Under the pieces are notes generated by a model. The model saw only the letters and a program-made list of their open reading frames with translations. It had not been told where the DNA came from and did not search any database. This document shows, one piece after another, positions 1,351 through 25,848 of a stretch of DNA of 64,000 nucleotides; within the stretch, counting starts at the first letter, position 1, and each line of letters starts with the position of its first letter. The DNA lies in sequence record MW748999.1. One strand, given 5' to 3'. The DNA comes from Escherichia phage vB_EcoM_Skers. The position numbers were made by a program, and so were the translations under genes.

Positions 1351-2164
1351 CCTTCCACACCTTCCTTGCATCATAGTTTTTACCTTTAGAAACAAATTTA
1401 TATGTGTTAAGGTAGATAATATTGCTCCAGTCTTTCGGGCTAATCTCAACAAGTTTTGTTTTAATGTGTCCCGGTAGATATGCTTTGATCATGTGATCAC
1501 TTCCACGCATACCTTTTACATCGCTCCATTTGATTTTTAAGCGTGTTTTATTGCTCAAGGTAGGAGTAGATGCATATTGCTTTAAAAGTGCTTCCAGAAA
1601 CTGCTGACGGGCTTTAGGTGTTACATAGTGTAAGTTAAGACCCAGCATTACAGTATTACCCGCCTTTGTCTTAGAATCACCCAGACAAATGATCAGCGGG
1701 AAAACATCCCAATATGGCAAAGTGTCTTTATACTTCGCATCATACATAAAGGTATAGATTCGCCCTACTTGCGGTTTTACAATCTGGTGTCCCTTTATTC
1801 CCGCTTTTATTGTTTTAGTAAACCACTCCTGTGATTTTTCTTTAGGACGACTCTTTGATACAGCACGCATAGACGCACGAAAATCATTAATCATCATCAT
1901 TGCGCGTTGCTGCTTATTGAGACCCTTTGCACCTTTCCCTTTTAGTTTTTCAACTTCTAATGCTGTTTTAATTTCGCTGGCATAACGAGACATACTTTTA
2001 GTGAAAGTCGCATAGGCTATTCCCTTAGAATCTGCAAATGCTTTAGCTGTCATGCCTTTGGCTTTTGCTTTCGCAAATTCTACACCCAATTCGACCCACT
2101 GTTTAGACTTTCTTTTTTGGGGAGACGGCTTTTCGTCTTCTGTGATTATTTCAAATACGCTCAT
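1343..2164 (-). CDS. 2: gp2-like DNA end protector protein (assignment by size and position)
   Basis: 273 aa, basic; sits next to gp4-like and divergent from gene 53 as in T4; no direct motif check possible. Confidence 0.5.
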   Translation of the reverse strand: MSVFEIITEDEKPSPQKRKSKQWVELGVEFAKAKAKGMTAKAFADSKGIAYATFTKSMSRYASEIKTALEVEKLKGKGAKGLNKQQRAMMMINDFRASMRAVSKSRPKEKSQEWFTKTIKAGIKGHQIVKPQVGRIYTFMYDAKYKDTLPYWDVFPLIICLGDSKTKAGNTVMLGLNLHYVTPKARQQFLEALLKQYASTPTLSNKTRLKIKWSDVKGMRGSDHMIKAYLPGHIKTKLVEISPKDWSNIIYLNTYKFVSKGKNYDARKVWKDA

Positions 2165-2175
2165 AATATTATCCT

Positions 2176-2649
2176 CTATTTGTTAAGCCCTTTAAAGCCA
2201 AACACTTTCTTTAATGCATGTTCGGTGATGATCTTAAACTCCATGTTATGCTTTTGGCATAATTTCACGGCAGCTAACCATTTTTCAGTATTTTTTGTGT
2301 ATGTCCATACTTCATGCATATATCGTTGCTTTGTCTTCGCGGTCATTCTTTTTGGCTTTTCCGGTGGCCTTGTCTCTTTAGCTGGTTTAACTTCCCATAA
2401 ATGCTCCTTGCCATCATCAAACTTAACGTAAAAATCCATAAAGTATCTGTGTCTTTTTCCGTCTGTTGATGACTCATAAGGAATTACTACGGTCTCAGAT
2501 CCCCATTTTGCAACTCTAGGATTGCGGTCTAGCCACTGCATGATCCATCTTTCCCAGCTTGAACGGTATGTGATTTTACGTATATCCCCTTTATACTTTT
2601 CCTTATTCTCAGGAACATACTTGCCCTTATAAGTGTTAGATCCTCCCAT
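2176..2649 (-). CDS. 4: gp4-like head completion protein (assignment by size and position)
   Basis: 157 aa; divergently oriented immediately upstream of gene 53 as in T4. Confidence 0.45.
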   Translation of the reverse strand: MGGSNTYKGKYVPENKEKYKGDIRKITYRSSWERWIMQWLDRNPRVAKWGSETVVIPYESSTDGKRHRYFMDFYVKFDDGKEHLWEVKPAKETRPPEKPKRMTAKTKQRYMHEVWTYTKNTEKWLAAVKLCQKHNMEFKIITEHALKKVFGFKGLNK

Positions 2650-2663
2650 TTTAGCACCCTTTA

Positions 2664-2673
2664 TTATAAATAC
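2664..2673 (+). promoter_or_regulatory. T4-type late promoter TATAAATA upstream of gene 53
   Basis: exact TATAAATA about 35 nt upstream of the gene 53 start; coordinates approximate. Confidence 0.5.
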
Positions 2674-2704
2674 ATAATACTATTTATCAATTGAGGGTGA
2701 TAAA

Positions 2705-3259
2705 ATGCTCTTTTCTTTCTTCCCTGCCATTGAATACAACGGCAAGATGATTACTGACATTGTGCGCAATTACCGCGCATATTTCAACGCAATAATTTCT
2801 GATTATAACATACAAACATATTACATTCAAGGTAGTCCACGACCGGAACAAGTTGCATATGAAGTATACGGAAACCAACAACTTTATTGGATCTTGCTGA
2901 TGCTTAATGACGTATACGATCCGTTCCATGACTGGATCACCGATCAAGAGACAGCATATGAATCAGCCGAACAACGATATGCAAACGTAGGAGGAAATCA
3001 AGTATTATACCACGTTGATATTGACGGAAACAAGTATTGGAATCTTACCGAATATCCGAAAGGATCAAGCAATTGGTATGATAAAGGGGATATTCATCAC
3101 CGTTATTTGCAGTTTCAGGGTGCATTATCGGCAGTAGACACACTGGAAGATGCGATCCTCCGTAATGAGGAACGACGCAAGATCAAGATCATAGATCCTA
3201 CACAAATTAAACAATTTATTAACGCATTCATTCGAGAAATGGAAAAGGCTGATGTGTAA
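2705..3259 (+). CDS. 53: gp53 baseplate wedge protein
   Basis: 184 aa immediately upstream of gene 5; N-terminus MLFSFF..NYRAYFNAIISDYN resembles T4 gp53 as remembered. Confidence 0.7.
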   Translation: MLFSFFPAIEYNGKMITDIVRNYRAYFNAIISDYNIQTYYIQGSPRPEQVAYEVYGNQQLYWILLMLNDVYDPFHDWITDQETAYESAEQRYANVGGNQVLYHVDIDGNKYWNLTEYPKGSSNWYDKGDIHHRYLQFQGALSAVDTLEDAILRNEERRKIKIIDPTQIKQFINAFIREMEKADV

Positions 3260-3270
3260 GGTGATTAATT

Positions 3271-5070
3271 ATGCTAATGTTTAATAACTCCGTTAAATGG
3301 TTTACCGGAATTGTAGAAAACAGGGAAGACCCATTAATGCTGGGGCGTGTTCAGGTTAGGATTCATGGTATACATCCCTCGCTATCCGCACACGGTGACA
3401 TTCAAGGTCTTCCAACCGAAGATCTATTATGGATTACGCCAGTACAAGATATTACAAGCGCGGCGATCTCCGGTATAGGTCAAAGCCCTACTGGTATTGT
3501 TGAAGGTTCAATGGTATTTGGTTTGGCTTTAGATGAACGTTATTTAAACTGCGTTATTCTGGGTACTATTGCCGGACAATATACAGAGAAACCACTCACT
3601 ACAGAAGGTTTTTGCGACCCTTCTGGTGCATATCCTCGTTATATTGGTAATGATGTTAATATTCTTGCTCGTGGCGGTATTAACCCAGAAACCGGACAAA
3701 CAACAAAACCTGATAGTGTCTATATTCGAGATGAAAACACTGGAGTTGCAGTAAATCCAGACGACGAGCCATTAGACCAAATTCCGGTTGATGATAATCC
3801 TGATTTTACAATAGAAAAAATGCTGCGGGGCGATGAGGGGTATCGCGAGAAATGGTATCTTGATTCAGAAGGATATCCGACAATAGGCATCGGTCATTTG
3901 ATCATTTATAAGAAAACCAGTGATCTTGGTATTATCAATAATGAACTTTCTAAGCTGGTAGGGCGTGAAGTTACAAACGGAAGACTTACAGCCGAAGAAG
4001 TTAGTAAAGTATTTGCTGACGATATAGAAAAGACTCGTCGTGATATGCGCAAACATCCACGAATTGCACCTGTCTATAATAAATGTAATGCCTCACGTCG
4101 TATGGCATTAGAAAATATGGCGTTTCAAATGGGTGTTGGTGGATTGGGTAAATTTAAGAATAGTCTTGCTGCGATGTTAGCGGAAGAATGGAAACAAGCC
4201 TATGATGGATTACGTCAATCTGTATGGGCTAATCAAACTCCAGGACGGTCAAGCCGTGTTTCTAAAATTATTTTAACTGGTAACTTAGAATCATATGGCG
4301 TAATTGCTCCAAAGAAAGAGGAATCAATTTCTGATGATCCGCGAGCACGTTTGAGAAATGCCCGTATTGCTGCCTATAAGACGCAGAGAGCAGAAGAAGA
4401 CCCAGAAGCACCGTTTACCCCACAAGACACACGAATCATGTTTAAAGAGCCTAAGAGTTCGTATTCTGCAAGGTATCCATATAACCATGTATACGAGTCA
4501 GAGAGCGGTCATATTATCGAGATTGATGATACTCCGTCTCATGAGCGATATCATCGTAAACATCCTTCGGGTACATTTGAAGAAACCAGACCGGACGGAA
4601 CGAGGGTAGAAAAGATCGAAGGTGATGATTATCTGATCGTTAAACAAGGCCGGAAAGTAAACGTTAAGGGTAATTTGCAAGTTGTTGTTGAAGGTGACGC
4701 GCAAGTTTATTATATGGGTAATGTGATACAAACCGTTGATGGTAACGTCACTGAATTTATTCGTGGTAATGTTAATCAGACCGTTGAAGGTACTGCTAAC
4801 ATGCATGTTGTAGGTGATGTTATCGCACAGCTTGACGCTAATTTGACGGCTAATGTCAAGGGTAATGCTGAATTAATGATCGAGGGTAACACTACCGAAA
4901 CAATTAAAGGTAACTATGATTTAACCGTTGAGGGTAATTTTAATATGACCGTCAATGGCACTAAATCAGATCAGGTTAATGGTGACTGGTCCCGTAATTG
5001 TGGTGCAAGCGTTAAAGATATTGCATCTGGTACAGTTAAAATTGATGGTAGCCGTATTGATCTTGGGTGA
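3271..5070 (+). CDS. 5: gp5 baseplate hub subunit / tail-associated lysozyme (cell-puncturing device)
   Basis: 599 aa; N-terminal OB domain; central T4-lysozyme-like segment (DEGYREKWYLDSEGYPTIGIGHLI); C-terminal V-x-G-N octapeptide beta-helix repeats. Confidence 0.9.
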   Translation: MLMFNNSVKWFTGIVENREDPLMLGRVQVRIHGIHPSLSAHGDIQGLPTEDLLWITPVQDITSAAISGIGQSPTGIVEGSMVFGLALDERYLNCVILGTIAGQYTEKPLTTEGFCDPSGAYPRYIGNDVNILARGGINPETGQTTKPDSVYIRDENTGVAVNPDDEPLDQIPVDDNPDFTIEKMLRGDEGYREKWYLDSEGYPTIGIGHLIIYKKTSDLGIINNELSKLVGREVTNGRLTAEEVSKVFADDIEKTRRDMRKHPRIAPVYNKCNASRRMALENMAFQMGVGGLGKFKNSLAAMLAEEWKQAYDGLRQSVWANQTPGRSSRVSKIILTGNLESYGVIAPKKEESISDDPRARLRNARIAAYKTQRAEEDPEAPFTPQDTRIMFKEPKSSYSARYPYNHVYESESGHIIEIDDTPSHERYHRKHPSGTFEETRPDGTRVEKIEGDDYLIVKQGRKVNVKGNLQVVVEGDAQVYYMGNVIQTVDGNVTEFIRGNVNQTVEGTANMHVVGDVIAQLDANLTANVKGNAELMIEGNTTETIKGNYDLTVEGNFNMTVNGTKSDQVNGDWSRNCGASVKDIASGTVKIDGSRIDLG

Positions 5071-21698: not shown

Positions 21699-23285
21699 AT
21701 GAAAACTACCAAAGAACTGATGGAAAAATGGTCCCCGCTGCTGGAGAACGAAAAACTGCCGGAAATCGCAACTGCGTCTAAGCAGAAACTGGTTGCTAAA
21801 ATTCTGGAATCTCAGGAAGCGGATTTTGCTGTAGACCCGATCTATAAGGATGAAAAAGTTGTTGAAGCATTCGGTGGCTTTATCGCAGAAGCAGAAGTTG
21901 CTGGCGACCACGGTTATGATGCATCTCAGATCGCGGCTGGTCAGACTACTGGTGCAATCACCAACGTAGGTCCGGCTGTTATCGGTATGGTTCGCCGTGC
22001 TATCCCTAACCTGATCGCATTTGATATTTGTGGCGTTCAGCCGATGAGCACTCCGACCAGCCAGATCTTTGCAATCCGTTCTGTATACGGTCCAGATCCT
22101 CTGAAATCTGGTGCTCGTGAAGCATTCCATCCGATGTATGCACCTGATGCGTTCCATAGCTCTCTTGCTGCTAAAGGTGCATCTGTAGGTTCTCCGACCG
22201 GGACTCCGTTTGCTAAACTAACTATCAATACTCAGATTGAAGCAGGTGATATTGTACACCACACCTTCGCAGAAACTGGCATTGCATATCTGCAAAACGT
22301 TACCACTGGCGCAGTAACCCCGACCAAAGCTGGCAGCGAGTCAGATGATGAAGTTGTCATGAAGCTGATGGAAGAAGGTAAACTGGCTGAAATCGCTTTC
22401 GGTATGGCGACTTCCATTGCCGAAATTCAGGAAGGCTTTAACGGTTCCAGCAATAACCCGTGGGCTGAAATGTCAATGCGTATTGACAAACAGGTTGTTG
22501 AAGCGAAATCTCGCCAACTGAAAGCCCGTTACTCTATCGAAGTTGCGCAGGATCTGCGTGCTGTACACGGTATGGATGCTGACGCTGAACTGAATGCTAT
22601 CCTGGCTAACGAAGTTCTGCTGGAAATCAACCGTGAAATCGTTGACGTTATCAACTTTACCGCTCAGGTTGGTAAGACTGGTATGACTCAGACCGTTGGT
22701 TCTAAAGCTGGTGTATTTGACCTGCAAGACCCGATCGATACTCGCGGTGCTCGTTGGGCTGGTGAATCCTTCAAATCTCTGATCTACCAGATCGACAAAG
22801 AAGCTGCTGAAATCGCTCGTCAGACTGGTCGCGGTGCTGGTAACTTTGTTATCGCTTCCCGTAATGTTGTAAACATTCTGGCTTCTGCTGATCAGGGTAT
22901 CAGTCTTGCTATGCAGGGTGCTGCAAAAGGTCTGAATACCGACACCACTAAAGCTGTTTTCGCTGGTGTTCTGGCTGGTAAGTACAAAGTGTTCATCGAC
23001 CAGTATGCTCGTCAAGACTACTTCACCGTAGGTTACAAAGGCGACAACGAAATGGATGCTGGTATCTACTATGCTCCGTATGTTGCTCTGACTCCGCTGC
23101 GTGCAACTGATCCGCAGTCTTTCCACCCGGTTCTGGGCTTCAAGACTCGCTACGGCATCGGTATTAACCCGTTTGCAGACAGCAAATCCCAGGCACCGTC
23201 CGCTCGCATCACCTCCGGTATGTTGAGCAAAGACAGCGTAGGTAAAAACGCATACTTCCGTCGTGTATGGGTTAAAGGTTGCTAA
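21699..23285 (+). CDS. 23: gp23 major capsid protein
   Basis: 528 aa (T4 gp23 521 aa); typical gp23 segments (AIRSVYGPDP, YKVFIDQYARQDYFTVGYKGDNEMDAGIYYAPYVAL, RITSGMLSKD). Confidence 0.95.
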   Translation: MKTTKELMEKWSPLLENEKLPEIATASKQKLVAKILESQEADFAVDPIYKDEKVVEAFGGFIAEAEVAGDHGYDASQIAAGQTTGAITNVGPAVIGMVRRAIPNLIAFDICGVQPMSTPTSQIFAIRSVYGPDPLKSGAREAFHPMYAPDAFHSSLAAKGASVGSPTGTPFAKLTINTQIEAGDIVHHTFAETGIAYLQNVTTGAVTPTKAGSESDDEVVMKLMEEGKLAEIAFGMATSIAEIQEGFNGSSNNPWAEMSMRIDKQVVEAKSRQLKARYSIEVAQDLRAVHGMDADAELNAILANEVLLEINREIVDVINFTAQVGKTGMTQTVGSKAGVFDLQDPIDTRGARWAGESFKSLIYQIDKEAAEIARQTGRGAGNFVIASRNVVNILASADQGISLAMQGAAKGLNTDTTKAVFAGVLAGKYKVFIDQYARQDYFTVGYKGDNEMDAGIYYAPYVALTPLRATDPQSFHPVLGFKTRYGIGINPFADSKSQAPSARITSGMLSKDSVGKNAYFRRVWVKGC

Positions 23286-23369
23286 TATAAGCCATTCCTG
23301 AAAACTCCGGTCGGGTGCAATACCCGACTTATCATAAACCTTATGACAGTGTAAAGTGTTAATTCCAAA

Positions 23370-23400
23370 GGGAAGACTCGAAAGGGTCTTCCCTTTTTGC
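23370..23400 (+). terminator. strong rho-independent terminator after gene 23
   Basis: stem GGGAAGAC/GTCTTCCC with 7-nt loop followed by TTTTT; a second weaker hairpin lies about 50 nt upstream. Confidence 0.7.
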
Positions 23401-23413
23401 GTATTATAACCCG

Positions 23414-23423
23414 TTATAAATAA
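23414..23423 (+). promoter_or_regulatory. T4-type late promoter TATAAATA with no adjacent ORF
   Basis: exact TATAAATA directly after the gene 23 terminator; next plausible SD/ATG is about 360 nt downstream. Confidence 0.45.
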
Positions 23424-23782
23424 GGTTGCAAGCCTATATTCTATTGTGAGCGAAAATAGATACACACAACAAAGACAGGAAGATGCAGAACATCGGTGGG
23501 TTGCTAGCCTAAATCCGGTGGCTATGATATGTGATTTCTTTTGATGCTGGATTTATTAAAACACAACAAACAATTCCACCAATTTTCGTAGTAACTGCAT
23601 GGCAAAGGGACCAATGAATGAAATGAGCGTTCATGTTGATATTGGGTCGGATAGATTTGGTAGATATACAGATCTGATGTATGCCGACCTTGTTATGACA
23701 TTCCGGTGTGACGCTAGCGGTAATTTTTGGTTTTGGTACGCTGTTCCCTGAATTAACCCAAAATTCTCCATAAGGAGGAATG

Positions 23783-23935
23783 CATGAGTAAGAAAGAAAA
23801 CAGCTATGTTATGACTCGTAAGGAATACAACAAATTGATGTTAGCATTAGCTTATGCAATTATTCGTTCTGATCATGCAATTAATCTGGTAAACAAAGTT
23901 AACCGTAGCGTTGATAATGTTTCTAGGAAGAAGTA
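23783..23935 (+). CDS. hypothetical small protein (about 50 aa) between genes 23 and 24
   Basis: hand-translated (MSKKENSYVMTRKEYNKLMLALAYAIIRSDHAINLVNKVNRSVDNVSRKK); strong SD AAGGAGG 5 nt upstream; below ORF-track length cutoff. Confidence 0.35.
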
Positions 23936-23945
23936 AGTTTATTTT

Positions 23946-23973
23946 GGAATCCTTCGGATTCCTTTTTCTTTTT
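23946..23973 (+). terminator. rho-independent terminator upstream of gene 24
   Basis: stem GGAATCC/GGATTCC (loop TTCG) followed by TTTTTCTTTTT. Confidence 0.6.
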
Positions 23974-23983
23974 GTATAAATAT
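23974..23983 (+). promoter_or_regulatory. T4-type late promoter TATAAATA upstream of gene 24
   Basis: exact TATAAATA about 35 nt upstream of gene 24 ATG; coordinates approximate. Confidence 0.6.
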
Positions 23984-24018
23984 GATATATCCATTAAGCA
24001 AATACAGGATTCATAAAC

Positions 24019-25260
24019 ATGACTCATATTTTTACTGAACTGTTGCGGGAATCTACTTCCTCAGTAGCTAACCAGACAGCGCGACCGCAACTATTATCAT
24101 TAACTCGCGCGGTAAACAACCTGATTTTCTCTGATCTGGTAGCAATCCAGCCAACGGATCAACCAGTATCGGCATTGTACGGCCTACGTTATCTTAATCG
24201 TGATGGTCAGATGACTTTCCGAACTGCTGCGACCTACGGTGGCGCGGCTGGTGATCGCACAGAGATTGAAGAGTTTTCAAAAGAAAAATCTTATGACGAA
24301 GGCGCACTGTTCAAATCAGGCGATGTTGTATACGAAGTTGTGACCGCTGGTACAGTCGGTGAAGATGCCGAAACTCCAGAAGCTGCGATCTTTAAAGGCG
24401 TAATGACAAACAAAATTCGTTTCTATAGCGATTGTGCATCGGTAGAATACTTTGAAGATAAAAACACCGAAATTGCGTCTACCTCTATGCAGTTTGACAA
24501 GTGGCAAGTTAATGTAGGTTCTCGTAAACTGAAAACCTCGTTCACCACTGAATTAATGCAGGATCTTGAGGCAAGCCAAATCAACTCTGAAAACTCTGTA
24601 ATTGATCTTCTGGCTACTGTTGCTTCCGAAGAGATCAACAAAGATATTATTCAGAAGTTGATCACTGTATCATCTCGCTATAAAATTAAAGGGATCACCC
24701 CTGATGGCGTACTTTCTCTCGTTAGCGTTCAGGATGCACCAACACAAGCGCGTGAACTTTACCGCTATGCTTGCGAGATGAGCAATCAAATGTTGCGGAC
24801 TTCCTCCTTTGCTGGTACATACGTTTTGGCGTCTTCTCGCGTGGTTGGCCTCCTGCAATCTACCGGATGGATGGAAGAAACCGACAATGCTCTAAGCGAA
24901 GGTCGTCTACGTTGCGGTCTGGAAGTGTACGCAGACACGACAACACCTTTCGATTATATGCTCGTTGGTTGTAAGCACATGATCGGTGATATGGAGAGTG
25001 TAGGTTCTCTGTTCTACTCCCCATATACAGAAGCCGACGGCGCTGGCGCGTATAAGAGCGTAATTGACCCTAATAGCTTCCAGCATCATGTAGCTATTAT
25101 GAATCGTTATTCACTCTCTGTCAACCCATACACATCAAAAGTTGATCAGGAAGAACACCAGGTCATCAAGGGTGACGATTGGGGTAAAATGGCTGGACGT
25201 TCAGAAATGTCCTACATTTTAGGAATCGAACTGCCACCGCTTGAGATTGACAACGCTTAA
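24019..25260 (+). CDS. 24: gp24 head vertex protein
   Basis: 413 aa (T4 gp24 427 aa); gp23-like fold segments; position after gene 23. Confidence 0.9.
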   Translation: MTHIFTELLRESTSSVANQTARPQLLSLTRAVNNLIFSDLVAIQPTDQPVSALYGLRYLNRDGQMTFRTAATYGGAAGDRTEIEEFSKEKSYDEGALFKSGDVVYEVVTAGTVGEDAETPEAAIFKGVMTNKIRFYSDCASVEYFEDKNTEIASTSMQFDKWQVNVGSRKLKTSFTTELMQDLEASQINSENSVIDLLATVASEEINKDIIQKLITVSSRYKIKGITPDGVLSLVSVQDAPTQARELYRYACEMSNQMLRTSSFAGTYVLASSRVVGLLQSTGWMEETDNALSEGRLRCGLEVYADTTTPFDYMLVGCKHMIGDMESVGSLFYSPYTEADGAGAYKSVIDPNSFQHHVAIMNRYSLSVNPYTSKVDQEEHQVIKGDDWGKMAGRSEMSYILGIELPPLEIDNA

Positions 25261-25848
25261 CTAAATATCTAACCAAGACAAGTCAGATCCGCCCAAGATT
25301 TTTTCGACGGCGGATCTATTTTCTTGATGATATAAGTTAAAACATGGTATCCCATGTCTACGGGCAACATAAACAGCAATTCTAGTTCCTCCAGAAACGA
25401 TTCCATTAACTTCTTTCGCCCAGAATATCACACAATCTACAGGATCATCAAGTGTCTCACCTAAGACTTGAGCAACATTTCTAGAAAACAGATTTTGCAT
25501 GTATAACGGTATAGAACGAGGATTATCATAAACGTGTTCTAATTCATCCATCGCCAGATTTTTTTGTTCTAAGGTTTGCCATGCAATCACATCATGACCG
25601 TTATGCTTGTGGTCATAAAACTTCCAATTTGGAATGAAAATTTTTCTATAATCTGGATCGTAATACTTCATGAAAGCATTGTCCATACCGTAAGCCCCTC
25701 CAGAATGCGCTACAACGCGATTTTCTGACAATACCCTCCCAATGGTACTAGCCATTATCAAAATGTCGCTAGGCGCTTTTCTAGAGCCGATTAAAGCACA
25801 TCTACGAAGTTGTTTTACTCCAAATAGATCTTGTAACTGGTCAAACAT
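25261..25848 (-). CDS. DprA/Smf-like Rossmann-fold (SLOG superfamily) protein
   Basis: 195 aa; motif ALIGSRKAPSD...VVAHSGGAYGMDNAF resembles the DprA/LOG nucleotide-binding core (GSR-x-x-S ... SGGA-x-G-x-D); family assignment by motif only. Confidence 0.55.
   Translation of the reverse strand: MFDQLQDLFGVKQLRRCALIGSRKAPSDILIMASTIGRVLSENRVVAHSGGAYGMDNAFMKYYDPDYRKIFIPNWKFYDHKHNGHDVIAWQTLEQKNLAMDELEHVYDNPRSIPLYMQNLFSRNVAQVLGETLDDPVDCVIFWAKEVNGIVSGGTRIAVYVARRHGIPCFNLYHQENRSAVEKILGGSDLSWLDI

Follow-up and report, generated by a model that had tools for sequence, protein, structure and literature searches.

The DNA analyzed here, hereafter the window, is a stretch of 64,000 nucleotides from a Krischvirus, i.e., an RB49-like T4-type phage, and the region under study is the spacer at positions 23286-24018, located between two head genes. 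The upstream neighbor is gene 23, encoding the major capsid protein (21699-23285, plus strand; a 528-aa ORF annotated as gp23 in RB49 and relatives), and the downstream neighbor is gene 24, encoding the capsid vertex protein (24019-25260, plus strand; a 413-aa ORF annotated as gp24 in relatives). Directly after gp24, on the minus strand, is RB49ORF164c (25261-25848), a 195-aa ORF annotated in some relatives as a “DprA-like DNA recombination-mediator protein”, which is an unusual neighbor for head genes. Matches to the spacer itself were found in 57 phage records, with identities of 90-99%; these are all Krischvirus, and phage E26 is the closest (99.2%). A preliminary description of this DNA had listed two terminators, two late promoters, and several small ORFs between the two genes, and our analysis found every one of these elements in place; it also confirmed that no ORF of 60 aa or longer occurs between the first late promoter, at 23415, and a 50-aa ORF (23784-23936) preceded by a strong Shine-Dalgarno (SD) sequence. 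Both late promoters and both terminators had already been predicted in RB49, in the supplementary files of Nolan et al. 2006 (PMC1524935), so that these signals are real, but not new.

Both terminators consist of a GC-rich hairpin with a U-run directly after it. Terminator 1, the terminator of gene 23 (23367-23398, plus strand), is a hairpin of 10-13 bp with a GAAA loop, followed by UUUUU. It folds with a dG of -20.9 kcal/mol (z = -5.0), and an equally good fold was obtained for 0 of 200 shuffled sequences. This terminator was overlooked by a simple terminator scanner; in RB49 it corresponds to a TransTerm prediction at 94951-94974 (PMC1524935, supplementary files), and it is annotated in the TB34, GEC-3S, and G2248 records. 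In an alignment of 11 genomes that carry the same type of spacer (scar-type genomes, see below), which we used to study the evolutionary pattern of the region, terminator 1 is unchanged (pi of 0), and JK32 retains the hairpin with its stem altered on both arms. Terminator 2 (23946-23972, plus strand), which ends the transcript of the cassette described below and of the 50-aa gene, contains a 7-bp stem (hairpin at 23946-23962) and a T-run, with a dG of -9.2, a z of -3.2, and the U-run UUUUUCUUUU; its counterpart in RB49 was predicted by TransTerm at 95531-95547 (PMC1524935, supplementary files). A further hairpin, this one without a U-run, is located directly 3′ of the gp23 stop codon (23309-23329, plus strand; dG of -13.1 kcal/mol, z = -3.4). 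This 9-bp hairpin is kept in JK32 and G2248, and may serve to stabilize the mRNA 3′ end, or in its processing, ahead of the true terminator.

Exact copies of the T4-type late promoter octamer TATAAATA (positions -13 to -6) are present on the plus strand at 23415-23422 and 23975-23982, and correspond to the RB49 predictions Pl:94970 and Pl:95534, respectively (PMC1524935). The octamer occurs nine times in the 64-kb window against 5.8 copies expected, which is not a significant excess; eight of the nine copies are on the late-gene strand, and relatives keep both spacer copies at the orthologous positions. The second of these, the late promoter of gene 24, lies 37 nt before the gp24 ATG and is invariant in the 11-genome alignment. 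The first, with a predicted transcription start near 23428, is the promoter of a former operon: in G2248, Brandy, and JK32 its orthologue precedes the SD and ATG of a 102-aa gene by ~30 nt, a conserved placement directly ahead of a late gene, and in the window this first gene behind it is dead. All 11 scar-type genomes retain the ATAAATA core of this promoter, with JSE and phiS carrying a T to C change at position -13 (CATAAATA). These two variants mean that a strict requirement for this promoter may be doubtful, though -13 is the least conserved position of RB49-type late promoters, with A or T common there (Nolan et al., PMC1524935).

The same segment contains a sigma-70-like site on the minus strand (TTGCAA-17-TATAAT, 23403-23431; 10 of 12 matches), which overlaps the late promoter and is directed back into terminator 1 and gene 23. 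The heptamer TTGCAAG at 23426-23432 is invariant even in L017, a divergent genome whose remaining intergenic region has changed, and this heptamer could be either an antisense promoter or part of the start region of the late transcript.

The 50-aa ORF, orf50 (23784-23936, plus strand), belongs to the RB49ORF162w family (phrog_16600, E = 2e-37) and is the last gene of the former operon. Its SD, AAGGAGG (23772-23778, plus strand), ends 5 nt before the ATG and is invariant in the 11-genome alignment. Orthologues of 43-50 aa are present in every relative, including a 43-aa version at the same place in the divergent L017, and these share the conserved motif Y..L.L...YAI...D....L..K(V/T)N.S. A comparison of orf50 with its orthologue in G2248 gave a dN/dS of 0.18, and comparisons with JK32 and L017 gave pN values of 0.25-0.45 with pS at 0.93-0.95, i.e., saturated. 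With a similar length in all relatives, conservation at the protein level, and an SD, orf50 is, judged by how its sequence has evolved, a genuine small protein gene under purifying selection. When 1.8 billion representative proteins were searched with a profile, just four further small clusters were identified (48-50 aa, all from the same clade), and a scan of IMG/VR found orf50 at two loci only.

Our comparison of this region between phages demonstrated that a number of relatives contain a far longer interval at this position. A cassette of ~3 kb is present between genes 23 and 24 in the GenBank genomes of Brandy, G2248, SSG23, SFHK24, UPWr_E1, and JK32, and in metagenomic genomes, where the late promoter is followed in turn by genes encoding 102, 570, and 310 aa, by the 50-aa gene also found in the window, and by a terminator. 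A sensitive blastn search of 50,697 phage records with the spacer returned 59 matching records, and this search separated relatives into three classes, with 42 records containing a full-length, single-piece match to the spacer, 10 containing the same match without ~85 bp, and 6 matching the right-hand part of the spacer only (the right-hand third in JK32). Searching by tblastn showed that full 570-aa and 310-aa genes are present in only 6 records, and that ~48 others retain just residues 252-309 of the 310-aa protein. The cassette is also present in the IMG/VR contig L009 and in L017, a divergent metagenomic genome of 169 kb, where gp23 is followed by genes encoding 100, 561, 303, and 43 aa and then by gp24, and where the 303-aa protein is 55% identical to its G2248 counterpart. 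No displaced copy of a cassette gene was found elsewhere in the window when the cassette proteins were searched against the whole of it by tblastn.

Two of these cassettes have features of their own. JK32 contains an additional gene of 614 aa (1628-3472 of the JK32 sequence), encoding a coiled-coil protein labelled “tropomyosin-like” and inserted before orf50. The N-terminus of this protein (~60 residues) is 47% identical (22 of 47) to residues 15-61 of the 307-aa protein, with 37% identity over the full 116-column BLASTP alignment of these two proteins, and this shared N-terminus suggests modular swapping of fibers on a common anchor. In Brandy, the annotation divides the 570-aa gene (984-2713 of the Brandy sequence, L004) into ORFs of 251 and 328 aa, and tblastn also matches it in two pieces; this split is either a frameshift resulting from ongoing decay or a sequencing error.

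Pairwise blastn of the spacer against Brandy, G2248, SSG23, UPWr_E1, and L009, and more weakly against JK32, demonstrated that the spacer is made up of three collinear pieces of the intact cassette. Piece 1 (23286-23468) spans the gp23 terminator, the late promoter with its leader, and codons 1-3 of the 102-aa gene; from 23302 to 23468 its identity is 95%. When this piece was aligned to Brandy, G2248, and JK32, its translation start of the 102-aa gene (23443-23468, plus strand) proved to be dead: the promoter, SD, and ATG are all intact in genomes carrying the cassette, and in the window the SD has changed from AAGGGGAG to ATTGTGAG and the start codon from ATG to ATA (23460-23462), with three codons left behind it. 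At deletion junction 1 (23468/23469), codon 3 of the 102-aa gene is joined to the interior of the 570-aa gene, and ~1.5 kb is missing, with window 23101-23468 corresponding to 322-676 of Brandy L004, and window 23469-23631 to 2161-2321. We found no clean microhomology at this junction; an offset GATGCACAC repeat occurs near both Brandy breakpoints, but is not conclusive.

The middle piece (23469-23612, plus strand) is an internal fragment of the 570-aa gene (~residues 394-445), with 88% identity to Brandy and 72-77% to the remaining alleles. This fragment is frameshifted and contains stop codons, so that tblastn matches to the 570-aa protein fall in two frames, and relatives show independent deletions within it of 85, 22, and 13 bp. 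Deletion junction 2 (23613-23631) is an imperfect 19-nt direct repeat (AATGA..AAAT.AGCGTT), at which ~1.2 kb is missing; this repeat is present at both breakpoints of the intact cassette, i.e., window 23613-23631 corresponds both to Brandy 2303-2321 and to Brandy 3501-3519. The right-hand piece (23613-23773, plus strand) is the 3′ remnant of the 310-aa gene (~residues 252-309), which is 94-95% identical to Brandy, SSG23, UPWr_E1, and L009 (tblastn E = 2e-11); at this level of identity, the match runs on through orf50, terminator 2, and the promoter of gene 24 as far as 24018. It is frameshifted by a 1-nt insertion near the end of the gene, and this insertion creates an ORF of 50 aa at 23599-23751, distinct from orf50.

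The alignment of the 11 scar-type genomes showed that the region containing these fragments evolves very differently from what surrounds it. Across the debris (23431-23767; 337 nt), pi is 0.026-0.045, and we counted at least 12 indel events, as opposed to none in orf50 or in 1 kb of gp24. The deletions measure 85, 22, 13, 12, and 11 bp, the insertions 4 and 2 bp, and several further indels involve a single nucleotide; JSE, 011D4, and phiS are natural deletants of the 85 bp. In the block formed by the SD, orf50, terminator 2, and the gene 24 promoter, pi is 0.002. Comparison of the 310-aa remnant with Brandy gave a pN/pS of 0.78, against 0.14-0.29 between intact alleles, with small counts. For the middle fragment, derived from the 570-aa gene, the pN/pS is 0.35 rather than 1, a value that is again based on small counts and that includes divergence in part older than the deletion. 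The debris in the spacer has the properties of a pseudogene: collinear homology to intact genes, lost start signals, truncation, frameshifts and stops, and relaxed constraint.

With respect to the near-invariant block (23768-24018), 0 of the 50 third-codon positions of orf50 are variable among the 11 genomes, and the third positions of gp24 have a pi of 0.033 in the same genomes; synonymous changes are present in the orf50 of G2248. The near-invariance of this block may reflect a recent shared origin, and not constraint at the RNA level.

We consider that the spacer is the deletion scar of a late, three-gene, fiber-like operon that is intact in a few relatives, with the orphan promoter and the tiny ORFs being its leftovers, and we assign this reading a probability of about 0.9. 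According to this reconstruction, the ancestor of this Krischvirus lineage would have contained the gp23 terminator, the TATAAATA promoter, genes encoding 102, 570, 310, and 50 aa, and a terminator between genes 23 and 24. Two internal deletions, of ~1.5 kb and ~1.2 kb and together removing ~2.7 kb, the second occurring via the 19-nt imperfect direct repeat, would have left behind 144 nt from the interior of gene 2 and the final 160 nt of gene 3, together with the operon's promoter, the disabled start of gene 1, and an intact orf50 that kept its SD and terminator. These fragments would then have drifted, acquiring frameshifts, stops, and lineage-specific deletions, while the flanking signals and orf50 would have stayed under selection. 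The finding that 42 of the 59 records contain the spacer as a single-piece match, and that 10 more differ by one further deletion of ~85 bp, points to one ancestral scar.

In the present-day window, terminator 1 would end most gene 23 transcripts, and the promoter at 23415 is predicted, from its sequence, to still fire late. The resulting RNA would be ~540 nt long, running from ~23428 to ~23965-23972; the leading 356 nt would be junk that is not translated, its sole product would be the 50-aa protein, translated using its own strong SD, and it would end at terminator 2, immediately ahead of the promoter of gene 24. The survival of the promoter core in front of an eroding stretch of DNA would be explained by selection for orf50 expression. 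This arrangement can be compared to a T4-type late transcription unit, in which an TATAAATA octamer read by gp55/gp33/gp45 is followed by an intrinsic terminator (PMC2988020, PMC1524935): in relatives with the cassette, the octamer is spaced as expected, and the Krischvirus cassette likewise ends in a hairpin/U-run terminator. Unlike in a typical unit of this type, the predicted promoter at 23415 in the window is separated from the sole remaining gene by 356 nt of pseudogene debris. The scar also has the same features as other pseudogenes and deletion remnants formed via short direct repeats, i.e., truncated and frameshifted fragments, a 19-nt repeat at a junction, an excess of indels, and a relaxed pN/pS. 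It is otherwise a textbook example, but phage genomes normally purge such debris quickly, and the Krischvirus scar is common to ~50 sequenced isolates. In summary, the spacer is a case of ordinary, well-resolved gene decay.

The direction of change follows from the fragments themselves, since internal, out-of-frame pieces of cassette genes in the spacer mean that the cassette is older and that the spacer is a product of deletion; the same gene order in JK32 and the divergent L017 likewise identifies the cassette as the older state. The converse, in which the short spacer is ancestral and a minority of Krischviruses acquired the 3-kb cassette by a later insertion, would fit with the low number of carriers (6 of 59 records), but an insertion cannot create an internal, frameshifted piece of gene 2 and a truncated 3′ end of gene 3. 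In addition, carriers have the gene 1 promoter, SD, and ATG in intact form where the spacer has mutated versions, and the most divergent relatives, JK32 and L017, both carry the cassette, making the converse extremely improbable. The preliminary description had offered, as one of its alternatives, that the region is the decayed remnant of an inserted gene, and had named a homing endonuclease as the candidate. Gene remnants are indeed what is present, but they derive from a resident late operon of three genes, and not from an inserted endonuclease. The one point in favor of a homing-endonuclease remnant, of the Seg type (GIY-YIG) or another, is the positional analogy to T4, which carries segD between genes 23 and 24. 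A six-frame Pfam scan at E <= 10 found no GIY-YIG, HNH, or other endonuclease family in the spacer, every segment of which is assigned to cassette genes without nuclease domains. Moreover, blastn in distant mode matched essentially only Krischvirus, with the sole match outside this group being a chance-level hit of 35 nt (E = 5e-3) to an unannotated part of phage UGJNEcP1. We therefore give an endonuclease origin practically no weight.

The stretch of ~360 nt behind the promoter had been proposed to encode a late noncoding RNA or to form a long leader, and an exact late promoter that is kept in most scar-type genomes, with ~356 nt between it and the next real start codon, speaks in favor of such an element. 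However, this sequence is out-of-frame coding debris of known origin, from which relatives have independently lost 85, 22, 13, 12, and 11 bp, and the downstream orf50 explains why the promoter at 23415 is conserved. Neither its folding nor Rfam indicates a structured RNA: the minimum free energy of 23424-23785 gave a z of +1.0 for the plus strand and -0.5 for the minus strand relative to shuffled sequences, and the only match to Rfam, which we searched at a permissive E-value with the spacer and at the gathering threshold with the whole window, was a chance match to fstAT (E = 0.36) over terminator 2. The alignment holds too few substitutions for covariation, and shows the large deletions given above. 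We thus regard a functional late noncoding RNA or regulatory leader at 23428-23780 as very unlikely; what stands of the proposal is the trivial sense in which the debris would be the 5′ leader of orf50 if the promoter fires. An ORF of ~45 aa near 23616 had also been singled out, and this ORF does exist, as the ORF at 23599-23751 with an internal ATG at 23614, but it overlies the frameshifted remnant of the 310-aa gene. Its retention as a functional micro-protein, either in full or as the 45-aa version starting at 23614, might be argued from its annotation as a hypothetical protein in many genomes, its own PHROG (phrog_20809), and a weak AGGGA upstream of the ATG at 23614. Set against this, the start, length, and frame of the ORF vary between genomes, where it is annotated with 45, 52, or 62 aa or is absent, indels of 1, 4, 11, and 12 nt occur inside it, and the pN/pS of 0.78 indicates relaxed constraint, all of which makes a micro-protein highly improbable. 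The small ORFs in the spacer other than orf50 are pseudogene fragments. As for phrog_20809, this PHROG has 45 positions and covers the ORF at 23599-23751 and its orthologues; it appears to consist of ORFs that are remnants of the 310-aa pseudogene, and treating it as a protein family is probably inadvisable.

Judging from fold similarity and control by a late promoter, the two larger products of the lost operon, of 570 and 310 aa, were most likely accessory fibers of the virion with a trimeric structure. The lost proteins look like such fibers, with a collagen-like run and, from fold predictions, a putative TNF/C1q-like head and pyocin-fiber-like tip. The 570-aa protein contains a (G-X-Y)x5 run in which four glycines are invariant and the fifth is nearly so, and both it and the 310-aa protein have weak matches to PHROG tail-fiber families. 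A Pfam search with the cassette proteins found nothing significant save an alanine-zipper coiled coil, and PF27308 is listed as a precomputed assignment for some homologues of the 570-aa protein. We also ran PADLOC on the cassette proteins and orf50, which returned coiled-coil noise and a weak match to Cas6 (E = 0.003, over 36 residues) that we judged to be due to chance. The closest systems for comparison are trimeric fibers with a collagen-like stalk and a C1q/TNF-like head, for example BclA, PRD1 P5, and phage receptor-binding proteins, and the tips of R-type pyocins or phage tail fibers, with the cassette proteins lacking membership of these families at the sequence level. Unlike tail-fiber genes, however, the cassette genes are located in the head-gene cluster, and not in the tail-fiber cluster. 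Our search of the literature on these phages found no mention of the cassette genes, and nothing relevant on RB49-like transcriptomes or describing the cassette beyond the signal predictions of 2006. The location of the cassette can be compared to the T4 gene 23-segD-gene 24 interval, and to the “plastic” regions of T4-related genomes (PMC2993671), in that the same slot contains optional cargo that varies between phages; unlike in the segD slot of T4, the cargo in Krischvirus is a late, fiber-like operon, and in the window this cargo has been deleted with recognizable fragments left behind.

The main value of these findings is for annotation. The ~50 deposited Krischvirus genomes each contain between one and five “hypothetical proteins” in this spacer, and in all of those whose annotations we inspected (the window, RB49, TB34, GEC-3S, JSE, Phi1, MIZ6, Makalu_002, 011D4, and phiS), the annotations other than the 50-aa gene overlie debris or noncoding DNA. 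The apparent orphan late promoter is explained without invoking a new RNA gene, and the region provides a clean, datable case of how T4-like phages shed cargo by deletion at short repeats, with the flanking transcription signals being kept. The one lead that we consider worth pursuing is the fiber-like operon itself, which is uncharacterized, variably present between genes 23 and 24, and a candidate host-range factor. As a tentative proposal, and one that we hold to be less than probable, the cassette could be an undescribed accessory-fiber module, made up of a collagen-like, C1q-headed protein of 570 aa, a coiled-coil protein of 310 aa, and a 102-aa partner, the presence or absence of which, together with its expansion in JK32, would be a determinant of host range or adsorption, with orf50 having a role independent of the cassette. 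If this were the case, most isolates grown on laboratory E. coli would have discarded the cassette, and orf50 would have a role in late infection.
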